Assembly: GCA_900768035.1 (NCBI GenBank)
Contig: CAAGBH010000141.1
Span: 1-28,222 of the forward strand
Source of the DNA: Clostridia bacterium
Lineage (GTDB): Bacteria > Bacillota > Clostridia > Oscillospirales > Acutalibacteraceae
Length of the DNA stretch: 28,222 nt
Reading direction: 5' to 3'
Part shown: positions 6,050-22,225 of the stretch, one piece after another
How positions within the stretch are numbered: position 1 is the first letter of the stretch
Layout: every line of letters starts with the position of its first letter
Position numbers and translations under genes: made by a program
The notes under the pieces: model-generated
What the model saw: the letters and a program-made list of their open reading frames with translations, nothing else
Told to the model about the DNA's origin: nothing
Databases searched by the model: none

Positions 6050-6079
6050 AAAAAAAGAGCGGAGATTATCCGCCCTTTT
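6050..6079 (-). terminator. Intrinsic terminator of the metB-like/dapF/murE operon
   Basis: Minus strand AAAAGGGCGGA-taatc-TCCGCTCTTTTTTT directly after the murE stop. Confidence 0.8.
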
Positions 6080-7544
6080 ATAAATTTAATTCCTTTTTAA
6101 TCTCTGCCACGACTTCACGCTCATCGAAATGATAGCGAACGCCCTTGACCTCTTGATACGTCTGATGCCCTTTACCGAGAAGCACTATCATATCGCCCTT
6201 TTGAGCATTCTCGATACAGTATTTAATCGCTTCTTTGCGGTCATCAATCTCGATATACTTACCGCCCGACCTTGCAAGCCCTATCTTAATATCATTATTT
6301 ATTTCGTGCAAATCTTCATCACGGGGATTATCTTCTGTTAGGACACAAAGGTCTGCCATAGCGCCCGTAACTTCACCCATATCATATCTGCGAAGTTTTG
6401 AACGGTTACCGCCACCTCCGTAAACACATATAAGCCTTTTGGGTTTATATTCGAGCAAGGTTGTTAGCACGCTTTTGGTGCTGACTTCGTTATGAGCATA
6501 GTCAATAATCACAACAAAATCATCACAAACAGGCACAATTTCAACTCTGCCCTTAACCTTAACACTCAAAAGACCTTGTGCGATACTTTCGGTATTTACA
6601 CCAAGTAAGTGACAACACAAAATTGTAACAAGCGAATTATAAACCGAAAATACACCCGGTGTATAAACCGTGAAATCGGTTTTTAAAACACCGCTTGTTT
6701 TAAAACGCATTCCGAGTTTTGAATCTTGCTTTATAAACTCAATATTTCCCGCCTTTAAATCGGCATCGGTTTTAGTGGAATATGTCTTAACTTCGCAAGT
6801 GTGTCCCTTTAAAACTTCTTGTGTATGCTCGTCGTCAGCATTAACTATTGCAGTCTTGCATTGACGGAAAAGCAAACTTTTACACTCAGTATATTCTTCA
6901 AAACTTTCGTGTTCGTTAGGGCCTATATGGTCGGGTGACAAGTTGGTAAAAATTCCATAATCAAACTGGATTCCTGCCACACGGTCAAGTTTAAGACCTT
7001 GGGAAGAAACCTCCATAACGGCATATTTGCATCCCTTATCAACCATTGTTTTGAAAATTTTATGAAGTTCATAAGATTCGGGAGTGGTATTTTTCGTCGG
7101 CAATTTTTCATCACCGATTAAAATACCCGTTGTACCGATAAGTCCTGCCTTAACGCCCGACTGTTCCAACACGCTTTTTATCATATAAGTAGTGGTGGTT
7201 TTACCCTTTGTTCCCGTAAGACCAACCGTTACAAGTTGCTTTGCGGGATAACCGAAAAACGCCGCCGACATAAGCGCCAATGCTTTTCTTGAAGATTTAA
7301 CCTTTATCACGGTAATACCGTCAGGTATATCTTCAATTTCTCTTTCAACCACAACCGCTTTAGCGCCCTTTTCGATTGCCTGCCCTATAAAACTGTGACC
7401 GTCAACAACAGCGCCCACCATACAAACAAAAAGACAATCTTCAATCAGTTTTCTTGAATCATATATAATATCTGAAATTTCGGTTTGTAAATCACCCTTT
7501 AAAACCTCAAATTCAGTATCTTTTAAAATCTGCGAAAGTTTCAT
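6078..7544 (-). CDS. murE: UDP-N-acetylmuramoyl-L-Ala-D-Glu--diamino acid ligase MurE
   Basis: P-loop GLTGTKGKTTT, TTPES, MEVSSQ, FTNLSPDH, IIDYAHN, the meso-diamino-acid motif DNPR and GKGHQTYQ. Confidence 0.93.
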   Translation of the reverse strand: MKLSQILKDTEFEVLKGDLQTEISDIIYDSRKLIEDCLFVCMVGAVVDGHSFIGQAIEKGAKAVVVEREIEDIPDGITVIKVKSSRKALALMSAAFFGYPAKQLVTVGLTGTKGKTTTTYMIKSVLEQSGVKAGLIGTTGILIGDEKLPTKNTTPESYELHKIFKTMVDKGCKYAVMEVSSQGLKLDRVAGIQFDYGIFTNLSPDHIGPNEHESFEEYTECKSLLFRQCKTAIVNADDEHTQEVLKGHTCEVKTYSTKTDADLKAGNIEFIKQDSKLGMRFKTSGVLKTDFTVYTPGVFSVYNSLVTILCCHLLGVNTESIAQGLLSVKVKGRVEIVPVCDDFVVIIDYAHNEVSTKSVLTTLLEYKPKRLICVYGGGGNRSKLRRYDMGEVTGAMADLCVLTEDNPRDEDLHEINNDIKIGLARSGGKYIEIDDRKEAIKYCIENAQKGDMIVLLGKGHQTYQEVKGVRYHFDEREVVAEIKKELNL

Positions 7545-7545
7545 A

Positions 7546-8445
7546 CTATTCTCCTAAAATATGACTTGCGTCAATTTCGCCCTCAAAAACATTGTTGCTC
7601 GGTCCTGTCATAAACATACAGTTTGTATCTTCGTCCCACTCAATCAAAAGCGGACCGCCGATTTGTTCAACCGTAACCTTACGGTCGCACCTGCCTGTGA
7701 GAACACCCGCAACAACCGCCGTAGCGCAACCCGTACCGCAACCTATGGTTTCTCCTGTGCCACGCTCCCATTCACGAATTTTTATATAGTTACGATTAAC
7801 AACTTTTGCAAAAGTAACGTTGGTTTTATTCGGAAAAATGCTTGTCATAAACTCGATTTCTCTGCCGTATTTCTCGACATCCAAATCGTCAAGCGAGTCA
7901 ACAAACATTGCGGTATGGGGATTTCCCCACGATACTGCAGTTATATTGAATGTTTTATCCAAAACCTTAACTTCCTGCTCAACAAACTGAGGTAAATCGG
8001 TGCACACAGGGATAACTTTTGTATCAAGTCTCGGCTCGCCTATGTTAGCACGGATATTGGTAACAAACCCTCTGTCTTTATAAGGCATAGCCTTTTCGCT
8101 ATCCAGAGGTTCACGATTTTCAACCGTCAATTTTAATTTCTGAAGACCGCCGAGAGTTTCAATAACCAAATCGGTTTTATCGGTAAGTGCGTGGTCATAA
8201 ACATACTTGCCAACGCTTCGCAAAGCGTTTCCGCACATTTCACCCTCGGTGCCGTCGGGATTAAACATTCTCATTCTGAAATCTGCCGTTTCAGACGGAC
8301 ATATAAGCACCATACCGTCAGAACCGATAGCAAAATGCCGGTCACTTACAAACCTTGCAAGTTCCGGCAGATTGGTAAGTTTCTGATGTATGGCATCAAT
8401 ATAAACATAATCGTTTCCAAATGCCTGCATCTTAGTAAACTTCAT
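7546..8445 (-). CDS. dapF: Diaminopimelate epimerase family protein (divergent)
   Basis: FTKMQAFGNDY, both catalytic cysteines (EMCGN and GCGTG), GNPH and WERG. Confidence 0.9.
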   Translation of the reverse strand: MKFTKMQAFGNDYVYIDAIHQKLTNLPELARFVSDRHFAIGSDGMVLICPSETADFRMRMFNPDGTEGEMCGNALRSVGKYVYDHALTDKTDLVIETLGGLQKLKLTVENREPLDSEKAMPYKDRGFVTNIRANIGEPRLDTKVIPVCTDLPQFVEQEVKVLDKTFNITAVSWGNPHTAMFVDSLDDLDVEKYGREIEFMTSIFPNKTNVTFAKVVNRNYIKIREWERGTGETIGCGTGCATAVVAGVLTGRCDRKVTVEQIGGPLLIEWDEDTNCMFMTGPSNNVFEGEIDASHILGE

Positions 8446-8458
8446 TTTTATTCTTCCT

Positions 8459-9643
8459 TTAAGAGTTCATTGCTCTGTCTAAATCATTGATTATATCATC
8501 AACATTTTCAATTCCCACCGACAAACGCAAGAAGCAGTCGGTTATACCCAAAGCGTCCTTAATTTCTTTCGGGGTGTCCTCGTGGGTTTGGGTGGTAGGA
8601 TAGGTTATAAGAGTTTCTGTTCCGCCGAGGCTTTCAGCAAACATAATCAAATCAACATTCTTTAAAATCTTCTTAACAGTTTCAAAAGAATCCACCGTAA
8701 AGGAAATCATACCGCCAAAACCTGTTGTTTGCTTTTTAGTAACCTCATAATCTTTATGGTCGGCGAAGCCTACATAGTAAACCTCTTTAACCTTTTCCTG
8801 TTTTCTGAGCCAATCGGCAACCTTTATTGCATTTTCATTGTGTTTTGCCATACGGACTGCAAGAGTTTTTATTCCCCTTAGCACAAGCCAAGAATCCATC
8901 GGCGCCAACTGACTTCCGTGAGACTTGATATGAACACGGATTTTAGCCGAAATATCTTCGTTATCCTTAACAACCACAATACCCGAAATAGTATCATTAT
9001 GACCGCCGAGGTATTTAGTTGAACTATGAGTTACAATATCTGCTCCCAACTTGAGCGGTTGTTGGAAATAAGGTGTCAAAAATGTATTATCAACAACAGT
9101 TAAGGCACCTATAGATTTTGCAATTTTCGAAAGTTCTTCTATATCGGCAACCTTCATCATAGGGTTGGTCGGAGTTTCGATGAAAAACATTTTGGTATTA
9201 GGAGTAATTGCATTTTTTACCGCCTGCAAATCAGACATATCAACATTAGTATGTGTAATGCCGTATTTGCCGAAAATATCATTAATAATTCGCAAAGTAC
9301 CGCCGTAAATATCGTCCGACATAACAACATGGTCGCCAACATTCAAAAGAGAAAAAACTGCCATATTAGCGGCTTGTCCGCTTGAAAAAGCAAAGCCTTT
9401 TATACCGCCCTCTAAAATAGCCATTGTTCGTTCTAATTCCTGTCTTGTTGGGTTCTCGAGACGGCTGTAATCAAACCCTGTTGAATTTCCAAGTTCCGGA
9501 TGGCGGAAAGTTGCAGACTGAAAAATCGGCATACTCACAGCACCTGTAAGCGGTTCTGTACCCAAAGCGCCGTGTACCGCCTTAGATTCGAAATGCAAAT
9601 CTTCCTTAGTGCTGAAATCTTTATAATTGCTAAAATTTTTCAT
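8459..9643 (-). CDS. PLP-dependent trans-sulfuration enzyme, cystathionine gamma-synthase (MetB/MetI)-like
   Basis: DYSRLENPT, ETPTNP, VDNTF, the PLP lysine in HSSTKYLGGH, FAESLGGTETLITYPTTQTH and RLSVGIE. ATG at 9643 with GAAGGTGG RBS. Confidence 0.88.
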   Translation of the reverse strand: MKNFSNYKDFSTKEDLHFESKAVHGALGTEPLTGAVSMPIFQSATFRHPELGNSTGFDYSRLENPTRQELERTMAILEGGIKGFAFSSGQAANMAVFSLLNVGDHVVMSDDIYGGTLRIINDIFGKYGITHTNVDMSDLQAVKNAITPNTKMFFIETPTNPMMKVADIEELSKIAKSIGALTVVDNTFLTPYFQQPLKLGADIVTHSSTKYLGGHNDTISGIVVVKDNEDISAKIRVHIKSHGSQLAPMDSWLVLRGIKTLAVRMAKHNENAIKVADWLRKQEKVKEVYYVGFADHKDYEVTKKQTTGFGGMISFTVDSFETVKKILKNVDLIMFAESLGGTETLITYPTTQTHEDTPKEIKDALGITDCFLRLSVGIENVDDIINDLDRAMNS

Positions 9644-9682
9644 CAAACTGCCACCTTCCAAAAAACACTATTATACATAATA

Positions 9683-9711
9683 ATTCTACCAAAGCGCTAT
9701 TAAAAAGTCAA
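9683..9711 (-). promoter_or_regulatory. SigA-type promoter of the metB-like/dapF/murE operon
   Basis: TTGACT (9711-9706), N17, TAGAAT (9688-9683) with an extended -10 TG; leader only about 35 nt. Confidence 0.7.
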
Positions 9712-10805: not shown

Positions 10806-11315
10806 TTATTTTATCGCCTTTTCAAGCACCTTAGTGACCGGTTTATACAGCAAAAATGTTAAAACTATATTGCCTACGCCGTGAATCATATCAAAGCCCA
10901 GACCGCTTACAATATTAGCAATTCCATAAGCGAAACCGCCTATAAAGAAGTAAGGAACTGAACATAAAATTCCAAACAACAACCCAAAAACACCTGAAAT
11001 TAAGGTGTATAATATCTGACTATCTATTTTGCGCACCAAGCAGACCACAAGCGCAAGTATTGCCCAGATATAAAGATAATTCACAACCCACATAGAAAGC
11101 CCATAGGTTAAGATTTCACATCCCACAAATATGTATACCGATACAAGTGACTTCAATCCAAATTTCCGTGCAATAAAAATGGTCAAAAGCGAGACTAACT
11201 CGATATTCGGAAGTTGTGACATTATAACCTGTGAAACATACATCAAGACGCCTAAAAAGGTTAAAACAAGGGCTTGTTTTAAATTAACTCGGTGTGTGTG
11301 TAATTTCAAATTCAT
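10806..11315 (-). CDS. ECF transporter S-component, CbrT-like (cobalamin or corrinoid uptake)
   Basis: About 170 aa, very hydrophobic, with LPNIELVS and C-terminal FDMIHGVGN; lies downstream of a B12 riboswitch. Start uncertain (ATG 11315 or TTG 11309); either overlaps the upstream gene. Confidence 0.72.
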   Translation of the reverse strand: MNLKLHTHRVNLKQALVLTFLGVLMYVSQVIMSQLPNIELVSLLTIFIARKFGLKSLVSVYIFVGCEILTYGLSMWVVNYLYIWAILALVVCLVRKIDSQILYTLISGVFGLLFGILCSVPYFFIGGFAYGIANIVSGLGFDMIHGVGNIVLTFLLYKPVTKVLEKAIK

Positions 11316-11676
11316 CACCGTCTGCAATCGCAAGTTCATTGATACCAACCTGTGTCATTTCACCTGCTTTAGTTACGCACCACCAAGCCTTATCCAAATT
11401 ATAATCGGCTCTCACACCGTCAATATAAAGGTAATAGCCTGTTTTGTGTTCCTCGGGTTTAACAAGATTTTTCTCTAATAGTGCATCACCCAAAAACTCG
11501 GCATCTGTGGAAATTTCAAATTCTTTCTCGGTTTTGTCCTTATAAACAACCGTTACAATTATATCCTTATCACCGTTTTTAGTGTCAGGCTTTGTTACAA
11601 TAATAATTGCCGCAAAAGCCGCTATTATTACTGCACACACTATGCTTAGTGTGATTATAAGTCCCTTTCTTTTCAT
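11284..11676 (-). CDS. Membrane-anchored DUF4430 (transcobalamin-like beta domain) protein, putative corrinoid-binding
   Basis: N-terminal transmembrane/signal segment, then YIDGVRAD...AWWCVTKAGEMTQVGINELAIADGDEFEI, the DUF4430 pattern. AAGGAG RBS. Confidence 0.75.
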   Translation of the reverse strand: MKRKGLIITLSIVCAVIIAAFAAIIIVTKPDTKNGDKDIIVTVVYKDKTEKEFEISTDAEFLGDALLEKNLVKPEEHKTGYYLYIDGVRADYNLDKAWWCVTKAGEMTQVGINELAIADGDEFEITHTPS

Positions 11677-11810: not shown

Positions 11811-11990
11811 ATTGACAGCGAGTATTCCGACTTATTGTGCAAGGGGGTCTGTTCCTTTAATTCTTCGCCTTCCCGCAAAAGCAGTGACATAATGAAGAAT
11901 CTTAACACAAATTACGGCGACGAGTTCGCAGGGGAATTTCACCCCTATTCCAGTTTAAGAAAAGCGGTTTTGCGCTTTTCACTGCCAACC
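11811..11990 (-). ncRNA. Cobalamin (B12) riboswitch aptamer
   Basis: Minus strand: closing stem TTGGCAG/CTGTCAA; AAACTGGAA; AGGGGTGAAATTCCCCT T-loop stem; GCGA-ACTCG-TCGC-CGTAA; GTCACTG...GGGAAGGC; B12-box-like AAGTCGGAATACTCGC. Gene context fits. Confidence 0.88.
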
Positions 11991-20787: not shown

Positions 20788-20829
20788 AAATGTAAGTGCC
20801 ATAATATGAATTAGGCACTTCATTTTTTT
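20788..20829 (+). terminator. Probable cca terminator overlapping a possible sporulation-sigma promoter
   Basis: AAGTGCC/GGCACTT stem followed by CATTTTTTT. The motif CATAATAT spans the top of the stem and the loop. Confidence 0.5.
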
Positions 20830-20842
20830 GTTAGGTGATTAT

Positions 20843-21640
20843 ATGAAGAAAATTTGTATTATAGGCGGAGACCGCCGACTTAGAAAAGTAAAACAAGTTT
20901 TAGAGAATGATAATTTTTATGTTGATACTTTAGGGCTTTATCCCGATGATAACGCTAAAATTGAATTGAGCGATGTTTTGGTTTTGCCTGTCCCCACAAC
21001 AAAGGATAATGTGACTGTTTTTACACCCTTAACCAACCGTATTATCCCTTTGAGCGAAGTGGAAGAAAGAGCAACAAACCAACTGGTGCTTTGTTGCAAT
21101 TATAAATTCAAAACAAAAGAAAGTATCGACTATAACACACTTGACAGTTATGCCCTTTTAAACGCTGTTCCCACAGCAGAGGGCGCAATTAAAATCGCTA
21201 TTGAAAACACACCTTACACTCTATGGAAAAGTAATATTTTAATTATAGGCTACGGCAGAGTGGGTAAAATTTTAGCCGACCGACTGAAAAACCTCGGCGC
21301 AAATGTGACAGTAAGCGCACGCAAACCCCGTGATTTTGCCCTTTTAGATGCTCTCGGATTTAATTACATAAATACCGAGAATCTTTCCCGTCAGTATTTA
21401 AATTATGATATTATCTTCAATACGGTCGATTTTAAAGTTATAAATGATGAAATGCTTAAAAACTGTCCGTCAAACCTTTTGGTTGATTTATCTTCAAAAG
21501 GCGGTTTCGATTTAGAATATGCAAAATCACTTGGAATGACCGCATTAAAACCGCCTGGACTTCCGGGAATAGTTGCTCCCGAAACCGCAGGAGAAATCTT
21601 AGCCAAAACGGTTAAAGAACTAATTCGTTTTCACACTTAA
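20843..21640 (+). CDS. spoVFA: Dipicolinate synthase subunit A
   Basis: IIGGDRR, NAVPTAEGAI, IIGYGRVG, DLSSKGG and PGLPGIVAPETAG. ATG at 20843. Confidence 0.9.
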   Translation: MKKICIIGGDRRLRKVKQVLENDNFYVDTLGLYPDDNAKIELSDVLVLPVPTTKDNVTVFTPLTNRIIPLSEVEERATNQLVLCCNYKFKTKESIDYNTLDSYALLNAVPTAEGAIKIAIENTPYTLWKSNILIIGYGRVGKILADRLKNLGANVTVSARKPRDFALLDALGFNYINTENLSRQYLNYDIIFNTVDFKVINDEMLKNCPSNLLVDLSSKGGFDLEYAKSLGMTALKPPGLPGIVAPETAGEILAKTVKELIRFHT

Positions 21641-21652
21641 AAGGAGAACATT

Positions 21653-22225
21653 ATGCAAAACATTACATTAGGATATGCAATGACCGGCTCCTTTTGCACG
21701 ATACAAGAATCATTAAAAACTCTAAAAAAACTTAGTGAATACGATATAAAAATCAAGCCGATTATGTCCGAAATAGTTTATAAAACCGATACCCGTTTCA
21801 TAAAAGCGCAAGATTTAATAACACAGGTGGAAGAAATATGCCACGAAAAAGTTATTCACGATATTGTATCGGCAGAGCCGATAGGCCCGAAAAATCTACT
21901 TGATATTCTGGTGGTAGCCCCCGCCACAGGCAACACCCTTGCTAAAAGCGCATTGGGTATTACCAACGGTGCTGTGACTATGGCAATAAAAGCGCATCTG
22001 CGCAACCAAAGGGCTGTCGTTTTAGGTATTGCCACTAACGACGCCTTGGGCGCCAGTGCAAAAAACATCGGTCTTTTGCATAACACAAAAAATATCTTCT
22101 TCGTTCCTTACCGCCAAGACGACCCGCAAAATAAAAACAATTCGCTTATATGCGATTTTTCACTTATCCCGCAAACTGTAGAACTCGCTTTACAAGGCAA
22201 ACAGATAGAACCACTTTTAATTTGA
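21653..22225 (+). CDS. spoVFB: Dipicolinate synthase subunit B
   Basis: GYAMTGSFCT, AEPIGPK, APATGNTLAK, KAHLRN, ATNDAL and VPYRQDDP. Confidence 0.94.
   Translation: MQNITLGYAMTGSFCTIQESLKTLKKLSEYDIKIKPIMSEIVYKTDTRFIKAQDLITQVEEICHEKVIHDIVSAEPIGPKNLLDILVVAPATGNTLAKSALGITNGAVTMAIKAHLRNQRAVVLGIATNDALGASAKNIGLLHNTKNIFFVPYRQDDPQNKNNSLICDFSLIPQTVELALQGKQIEPLLI

Follow-up and report, generated by a model that had tools for sequence, protein, structure and literature searches.

What is a gene of the transsulfuration type doing in one transcription unit with two genes of peptidoglycan precursor synthesis? The question is raised by a 28,222-nucleotide stretch of DNA from a member of the Acutalibacteraceae (Clostridia, Oscillospirales; contig CAAGBH010000141.1 of GenBank assembly GCA_900768035.1), which was analysed as a whole and is called the window below. 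On its minus strand lie, in this order, a gene for a pyridoxal phosphate (PLP) enzyme of the MetI/MetB type, a dapF and a murE, together referred to as the cassette. The initial annotation had read them as a candidate natural route to a sulfur-bridged substitute for diaminopimelate (DAP) in a clostridial cell wall. The current work confirms that the operon of MetI/MetB-like PLP enzyme, DapF and MurE is real. It is probably an accessory module for peptidoglycan precursors, in which a thioether diamino acid would be synthesised, epimerised and ligated into peptidoglycan.

In the proposed first step, the PLP enzyme would couple cysteine to another amino-acid unit: L,L-lanthionine would result from O-acetylserine or from a further cysteine, and L,L-cystathionine from O-acetylhomoserine. 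The dedicated DapF would then invert one centre to a meso-like D,L form, which the dedicated MurE would add at position 3 of the stem peptide, parallel to the meso-DAP route of the host. The three reactions are predicted from sequence, as are the direction in which the pathway runs and the incorporation into the wall; the identity of the genes, their co-inheritance, the paralogous status of the cassette copies and the genomic absences described below were observed directly.

Linkage of the three genes speaks for a common module. Relatives that matched a five-sequence DapF alignment numbered 554 in a scan of the genome collection, and the best 80 of them were kept. In every one of these loci a PLP gene lies upstream of DapF on the same strand (within 400 bp in 77), and in 78 MurE lies downstream, so that all three genes are linked in 78/80. 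The synteny in relatives is thus strongly conserved. The 80 loci include Roseburia and other Lachnospiraceae. A metagenome scan with the PLP enzyme, from which 80 of 572 loci were kept, separated two groups: homologues of at least 64% identity (n = 34) have DapF downstream in 28 cases, the 6 other loci ending too early, and homologues of at most 59% identity (n = 46) have no dapF neighbour at all and patB nearby in 33. Chance adjacency of the three genes is ruled out by these counts.

The genes flanking the cassette vary among lineages, and in five loci it stands directly before murE1/murF, as in the order PLP-dapF-murE-murE-murF-priA. DapF-MurE fusions occur in genomes G098 and G103; the cassette DapF and MurE form a single protein of about 780 residues at loci L128 (4989-7331) and L136 (4995-7334). 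Within the genus of the window (36 genomes), cassette-type DapF was found in 3 (83-98% identity), each with PLP gene and MurE; 13 have an ordinary DapF only (43-47%) and 20 gave no match. In G055, from another family, the identical three-gene order occurs at 57, 48 and 47% identity. Named carriers are Roseburia hominis An869, Anaerosporobacter faecicola KCTC 15857 and Anaerolentibacter hominis CSJ-1. At the level of the DapF protein alone, Roseburia inulinivorans is included in a cassette-type cluster of 3761 members.

Trees were built from the window copies and other cassette rows (DapF 33/99, MurE 36/95, PLP enzyme 38/96) with all non-cassette rows, after removal of 4 rows of ambiguous context per gene. 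In each tree a single branch sets the cassette copies apart, with support of 95 for DapF (quick IQ-TREE), 96 for the PLP enzyme and 93 for MurE (FastTree); as the sampling was by similarity to cassette DapF, the DapF grouping arises partly by construction, which applies less to the other two. Across 66 loci, which are not independent, the pairwise identities of these genes show correlations of 0.87-0.90 with one another. Compared with G026, synonymous and nonsynonymous codon differences number 62:5 in the PLP gene, 31:5 in dapF and 86:16 in murE, a pattern that indicates purifying selection on all three.

The window copies nest in Lachnospiraceae-type sequences, far from the DapF and the division and cell wall (dcw) MurE of the genus itself, and the mean identity of the PLP enzyme to Roseburia-type copies is 85%, against 33-67% for 11 other shared proteins. 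This nesting and this identity suggest that the genus probably gained the cassette horizontally, the trees being unrooted as to direction. Base composition (cassette 40.5% GC, genome 38.1%, dcw murE 34.8%) is too weak a contrast to use. Carriage by plasmids was rejected, with no cassette-type copy in 112 matching plasmid records, all below 60% identity. Viral contigs gave a single match, a truncated cassette dapF beside phage tail-like genes (L309, 1782-2468), possibly a prophage in a cassette. One locus labelled Thermoguttaceae (Planctomycetota; L105) has a Roseburia-like cassette and likely comes from a mislabelled or contaminated assembly.

The PLP enzyme matches PF01053 (489 bits) and has no PF00291 match. 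It scores below the cut-offs of all 25 best NCBIfam models displayed (of 70 families), led by PRK07671 (478, cut-off 594) and PRK06176 (464, cut-off 642). Residues Y59, R61, Y113, K210, E337 and R373 are conserved, which we take to be the PLP lysine and the Tyr, Arg and Glu active-site motifs. Cassette enzymes share fixed changes such as Q90 in place of an otherwise invariant Met and E355 for A. Their closest non-cassette homologues (51-59% identity) adjoin patB in 33/46 loci, as against 0/113 loci with patB nearby among L064-L176, which rules out an ordinary metI-patB operon. By its homology the enzyme is a descendant of clostridial MetI/MetB (cystathionine gamma-synthase) of the metI-patB lineage, and it is the proposed thioether synthase.

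The cassette DapF scores 251.5 bits with TIGR00652 (cut-off 114.65), and its catalytic Cys71 and Cys236 and distal L-amino-acid site are intact. Residues N11, N62, C71, G72, N73, N175, N209, E227, R228, C236, G237 and T238 of the proximal and distal sites, each kept in at least 97 of 99 cassette copies, correspond to N13, N66, C75, G76, N77, N164, N197, E215, R216, C224, G225 and T226 of Anabaena DapF. All residues that bind DAP at either end in the structure from Anabaena are thus kept, and a diamino diacid whose distal centre is L should still be the substrate. Clade-specific changes beside the catalytic motifs (A8, A74, W173, T211, E225, G235) are fixed in 97-99 of 99 copies, and a loop Glu is found in 99/99 cassette copies compared with 13/42 others. 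At position Gln44/Gly47, linked to lanthionine turnover (PMC12039745; articles are cited here for the portions of their text that were available), all 99 copies have Gly. The protein is the proposed epimerase for conversion of the L,L to the D,L thioether. An AlphaFold model built on 5 aligned sequences was of low quality (mean pLDDT, the predicted local distance difference test, 60.5) and was not used.

The cassette MurE exceeds the cut-offs of NF001126 (509, cut-off 373) and TIGR01085. The P-loop, K222, R381, D405-N406-P-R408 and G457 are present; K222 and R381 are presumably the carbamylated Lys and the Arg preceding DNPR, and G457 is presumably functional as well. The Glu of the GKGHE motif is replaced by Q461 in the window, where cassette copies have E in 84/95 and Q in 10/95, and other MurE proteins E in 29/30. 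The DNPR residues (D405, N406, R408) are found in 95/95 cassette copies, and this motif has been tied to D,L-DAP (PMC12681378). According to the same source, D,L-lanthionine is accepted by the MurE of Anabaena and E. coli. The window protein is not the housekeeping enzyme of the dcw cluster: the canonical murE, 41% identical, sits on contig C147 between a penicillin-binding protein (PBP)-like gene and mraY.

The window's own genome (G000) is a 1.2 Mb draft, 87% complete. It carries asd-dapA-dapB, lysA-dapA (two dapA in all) and ddh. The Ddh route leads to meso-DAP without DapF. No DapL was found over the cut-off, and the window DapF is the sole DapF found in G000; with Ddh present and DapL not found, this only DapF would have no ordinary job. 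A weak motif screen of G000 for DapD/DapH and N-acetyl-DAP deacetylase, run without positive control, gave nothing convincing. Thus, of the genes that the initial annotation had named as informative, ddh, lysA and a second murE are present in G000, and DapL, metC and a second dapF were not found. Replacement of DAP in a DAP-less organism is ruled out by the presence of asd, dapA, dapB, ddh, lysA and the canonical dcw murE. The idea of a sulfur-bridged DAP substitute must accordingly be narrowed: substitution falls, since the host keeps its DAP genes and its canonical murE, and what is left is a parallel, accessory route beside DAP. In the same genome, contig C46 (293-3861; L035) holds an alpha/beta hydrolase, a MurF-like protein and a Ddl-like gene; the MurF-like protein (524 residues, with a hydrophobic N-terminal extension) does not reach the cut-off for murF, and a canonical murF was not detected in the dcw cluster.

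Sulfur genes of G000 found elsewhere than the cassette are metY-metA, hom and CysK-like genes. PatB, a second MetC-like gene, CysE, MetH and MetE were not found in G000, and the PLP enzyme is there not coupled to a beta-lyase or methionine synthase. An ordinary role in methionine synthesis with a distant MetC, the counter-reading of the initial annotation, is therefore not supported in G000, although it is possible in the 23 of 50 cassette genomes that carry PatB (below). The metY-metA pair (contig C64, 6201-8421) is kept even though MetH and MetE were not found in G000, nor MetH in three genus relatives; methionine may come from methanethiol or an unrecognised synthase.

A set of 50 cassette-type genomes was compiled from 45 of the 80 loci and 5 relatives; they are mostly drafts and mutually related. 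Two MurE occur in 42/50. Ddh without DapL was found in 15/50, and in 13 of these 15 the cassette DapF is the only DapF; DapL without Ddh was found in 32/50, with another DapF kept in 31 of the 32. In 3/50 neither Ddh nor DapL was detected. With G000 included, MetA occurs in 47/51 and CysE in 44/51 genomes. A PLP-enzyme match at E<=1e-90 was absent from 20 of 21 cassette-less genus relatives, and in the single relative with a match the gene has a cysK-like gene on either side.

In four reduced genomes (G094, G097, G098, G103) the PLP gene is retained together with the cassette dapF and a divergent MetA; the cassette of G094 is without MurE. Hom, MetY, PatB, MetH and MetE were not found in these four, whose completeness is unreported, so that the PLP enzyme hardly serves methionine synthesis there. 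The failure to find Hom makes a homoserine-derived product doubtful and speaks for lanthionine. In Lactobacillus casei a protein annotated as MetA acts as a serine acetyltransferase (PMC4742844); for the MetA of the reduced genomes, no choice could be made between serine and homoserine acetyltransferase. This divergent MetA stands alone in reduced Clostridia (L299-L302), is split in G094 and, in the match from G097, is interrupted by an internal stop. As the product of the cassette, lanthionine has a slight edge over cystathionine; lanthionine can be named only tentatively, cystathionine is rather unlikely, and formation of both is improbable.

Roseburia-type genomes also have a housekeeping DapF (L254-L258; 27-30% identity to that of the window) in which both catalytic Cys are Ser in 5/5 copies. 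The candidate explanation that this second DapF is dead was dropped, as Ser/Ser is reported as a natural type (PMC13728532). By analogy these proteins are probably functional; if they are inactive, DAP synthesis in Roseburia-type genomes could fall to the cassette DapF.

The alternative that survives best, although it is unlikely, is this: dapF-murE would be a duplicate working on ordinary DAP, as a backup or at one growth stage such as sporulation, and the PLP gene would be a co-transcribed passenger from methionine or cysteine metabolism. The canonical DAP-binding residues of MurE and DapF are indeed all kept, dapF-murE pairs without a PLP gene occur in Lachnospiraceae and relatives (L224, L236, L237, G049), and in three genomes the only full-length MurE found is of the cassette type (see below). 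The frequencies of PatB (23/50) and MetA (47/51) would suit a passenger as well, and bifunctional MetB/MetC enzymes have been proposed (GapMind preprint). However, in Ddh genomes, where DapL was not found, such a DapF would lack a source of L,L-DAP. A passenger would also hardly stay in the unit at 80/80 loci and persist where the methionine pathway was not found, and the fixed DapF substitutions listed above are not expected of a mere duplicate.

Slightly less probable is a different stem residue or product, such as L,L-DAP made in reverse from meso-DAP, homolanthionine, another PLP replacement product or a Mur-ligase product outside the wall. DapF could supply L,L-DAP in Ddh genomes, group-specific substitutions occur in all three proteins, and other taxa relevant to the gut are known to have walls with L,L-DAP (PMC11382707). 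Such a wall would, however, leave the PLP enzyme without a role; the universal DNPR motif in cassette MurE, tied to the D,L form (PMC12681378), and the position of cassettes next to murE1/murF in several genomes also speak against these products.

Least probable among the three is a module running in reverse for salvage or editing, in which DapF would turn meso-lanthionine or allo-cystathionine from the diet or the walls of other microbes into the L,L form, for cleavage by the PLP enzyme; this would recover cysteine or exclude thioethers from the wall. The top NCBIfam match and several top PDB matches of the PLP enzyme are cystathionine gamma- and beta-lyases, DapF reactions are reversible, and the reduced genomes are probably sulfur-amino-acid auxotrophs; but salvage leaves an ATP-dependent ligase, co-inherited in 78/80 loci, unexplained, no transporter or peptidase is among the constant neighbours, and the nearest homologues hold the synthase position in metI-patB operons. 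At residue 337, presumably a position of functional importance, the PLP enzyme also has Glu, as against Val in the Bacillus beta-lyase 8JUI.

Several observations weigh against a thioether module itself. MurE is missing from 2/80 loci (L117, L124), dapF-murE of G043 has its PLP gene elsewhere, and G096 carries a second, unlinked PLP gene of the cassette type. The best NCBIfam score of the PLP enzyme, below cut-off, is to a gamma-lyase family. Gly44 of DapF is also found in 42/42 non-cassette copies; it therefore permits lanthionine and is not a marker of it. Cassette MurE keeps ordinary meso-DAP motifs, with only four weak group-specific positions. In G043, G055 and G104 it is the only full-length MurE found, and it must there also accept the residue of those walls. 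Ddh or DapL is present in 47/50 carriers; these can apparently make DAP, which leaves the benefit of the cassette unexplained. PatB is encoded elsewhere over the cut-off in 23/50, all of the DapL type (23/32, compared with 0/15 for the Ddh route). The absences rest on draft genomes, G000 being 87% complete and completeness being unreported for most others. The available text of the review PMC11382707 lists no biochemical or wall-composition data for Roseburia, and a predicted lanthionine epimerase of Fusobacterium proved to be a histidine racemase (PMC11602996). Ideas as to the benefit are the sparing of DAP and lysine, diversion of the DAP pathway to dipicolinate in sporulation, and evasion of wall hydrolases.

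In two of the genomes with a single full-length MurE, murF directly follows the PBP gene in the division clusters, without an intervening murE (L290 in G043, L273 in G055). In Anaerolentibacter hominis CSJ-1 a murE adjoining the cassette encodes a MurE of 373 residues without the N-terminal domain (L269, 8610-9731), and the cassette MurE is again the only full-length one found. Elsewhere, DapF-like domains occur in open frames of about 1340 residues (L011, L025 and others) whose upstream part resembles the large subunit of carbamoyl-phosphate synthase; these frames are found in many genomes of the order.

The layout of the operon is given in Table 1. Its description as a closed three-gene unit agrees with the minus-strand reading frames, which are separated by only 13 bp (PLP gene and dapF) and 1 bp (dapF and murE), and with the flanking promoter and hairpins.

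Table 1. Positions of the cassette genes and their flanking signals in the window
Feature	Position	Strand	Remarks
PLP enzyme gene	8459-9643	minus	394 aa; ATG start common to relatives; TTG start of the ORF finder at 9661
Cassette dapF	7546-8445	minus	299 aa
Second murE	6078-7544	minus	488 aa, Lachnospiraceae type
Sigma-A-type promoter	9711-9683	minus	TTGACT-17-TAGAAT with upstream TG (extended -10)
Intrinsic terminator-like hairpin after degV	9787-9757	minus	14 pairs, T tail; bounds the cassette upstream
Intrinsic terminator-like hairpin	6079-6053	minus	immediately 3' of the murE stop

The upstream hairpin is near-identical in G026, and a TTGACT...TA.AAT site also lies 5' of the PLP gene in G026, G033 and G024. 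Promoter-like sites in the scan numbered 29, against 17.7 expected from shuffles, so a single promoter match is weak. The leader from promoter to the ATG of the PLP gene measures about 35 nt, which leaves no room for an S-box or T-box, and an Rfam search of the window leader gave no match. No S-box or T-box was found at the window, at 7 cassette loci or at 3 metI-patB control loci; as the controls are also without riboswitch, the test does not discriminate.

As the initial annotation had stated, the window is free of recognisable metA, metC, metE, dapA, dapB and lysA among its open reading frames (10 were scanned against family libraries); metA, dapA, dapB and lysA of G000 lie on other contigs only. 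The window also holds murC and the dipicolinate synthase genes dpaA/dpaB (20828-22225, plus strand), which point to sporulation and to a further draw on the DAP pathway besides wall synthesis. A cobalamin riboswitch (11822-11951, minus strand) lies 5' of genes for a DUF4430 protein and a small membrane protein (open reading frames 11284-11676 and 10806-11348); the unit probably serves B12 uptake, though MetH was not found in the genome.

A dedicated route to lanthionine or cystathionine peptidoglycan beside the DAP wall, exchanged horizontally, may well exist among gut Clostridia including Roseburia inulinivorans. If so, a switchable or mixed wall could alter the sensitivity to hydrolases and the muropeptides sensed by the host, and the peptidoglycan fragments that reach host sensors could change. 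meso-Lanthionine is reportedly a NOD1 activator, to judge from the title of a reference. Plain annotations as metB, dapF and murE would then hide a different pathway, for which the cassette offers a simple genomic marker in the choice of strains. The initial annotation knew of no account of such a route, and none was found in the literature searched, including the available portions of PMC12632261, PMC10829024 and bioRxiv 10.1101/2024.10.14.618325; subscription journals and strain descriptions lay outside the search. Nor was any report found of cystathionine as a natural stem residue, which it would be if it is the product here.

Among known systems, the clostridial metI(metB)-patB(malY) transsulfuration operons contain the nearest homologues of the PLP enzyme, whereas the cassette has dapF-murE instead of patB and its enzyme forms a separate group in the tree. 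The cassette DapF and MurE, for their part, meet the cut-offs of canonical DapF and meso-DAP MurE and keep their catalytic and substrate residues, yet both are extra copies. In the literature found, natural thioether-bridged peptidoglycan is confined to Fusobacterium. In F. nucleatum a thioether diamino acid at stem position 3 is made from cysteine by a PLP enzyme (CysK1/FN1220; PMC9600241, PMC11602996), and the same is proposed here from the genes. The fusobacterial lanthionine synthase, however, is an annotated cysteine synthase and not of the PF01053 type to which the MetI/MetB-type cassette enzyme belongs, and it can form D,L-lanthionine directly from L- and D-cysteine. Its host has no DAP synthesis and a DapF-like protein that is a histidine racemase, in contrast to the intact DAP route, second MurE and true DapF-type active site in the Gram-positive Clostridia. 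A second, enzymatically distinct route in Gram-positive gut commensals would widen the known wall chemistry.

The closest parallel in logic comes from the laboratory. In E. coli, overexpression of metB with loss of metC reportedly gave the thioethers. DAP auxotrophs of E. coli growing on lanthionine or cystathionine (Richaud 1993; Mengin-Lecreulx 1994) share the thioether, the DapF-dependent epimerisation and the incorporation by MurE, and a suppressor of a Mycobacterium smegmatis DAP auxotroph that makes lanthionine follows the same thioether logic (both as cited in PMC12039745, PMC12681378 and bioRxiv 10.1101/2021.12.18.472960). Those strains were engineered or selected and use promiscuous housekeeping enzymes, whereas the cassette consists of natural, co-inherited and apparently dedicated paralogues; it would, if the proposal is correct, represent in nature a route that has until now been constructed only in E. 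coli in the laboratory.

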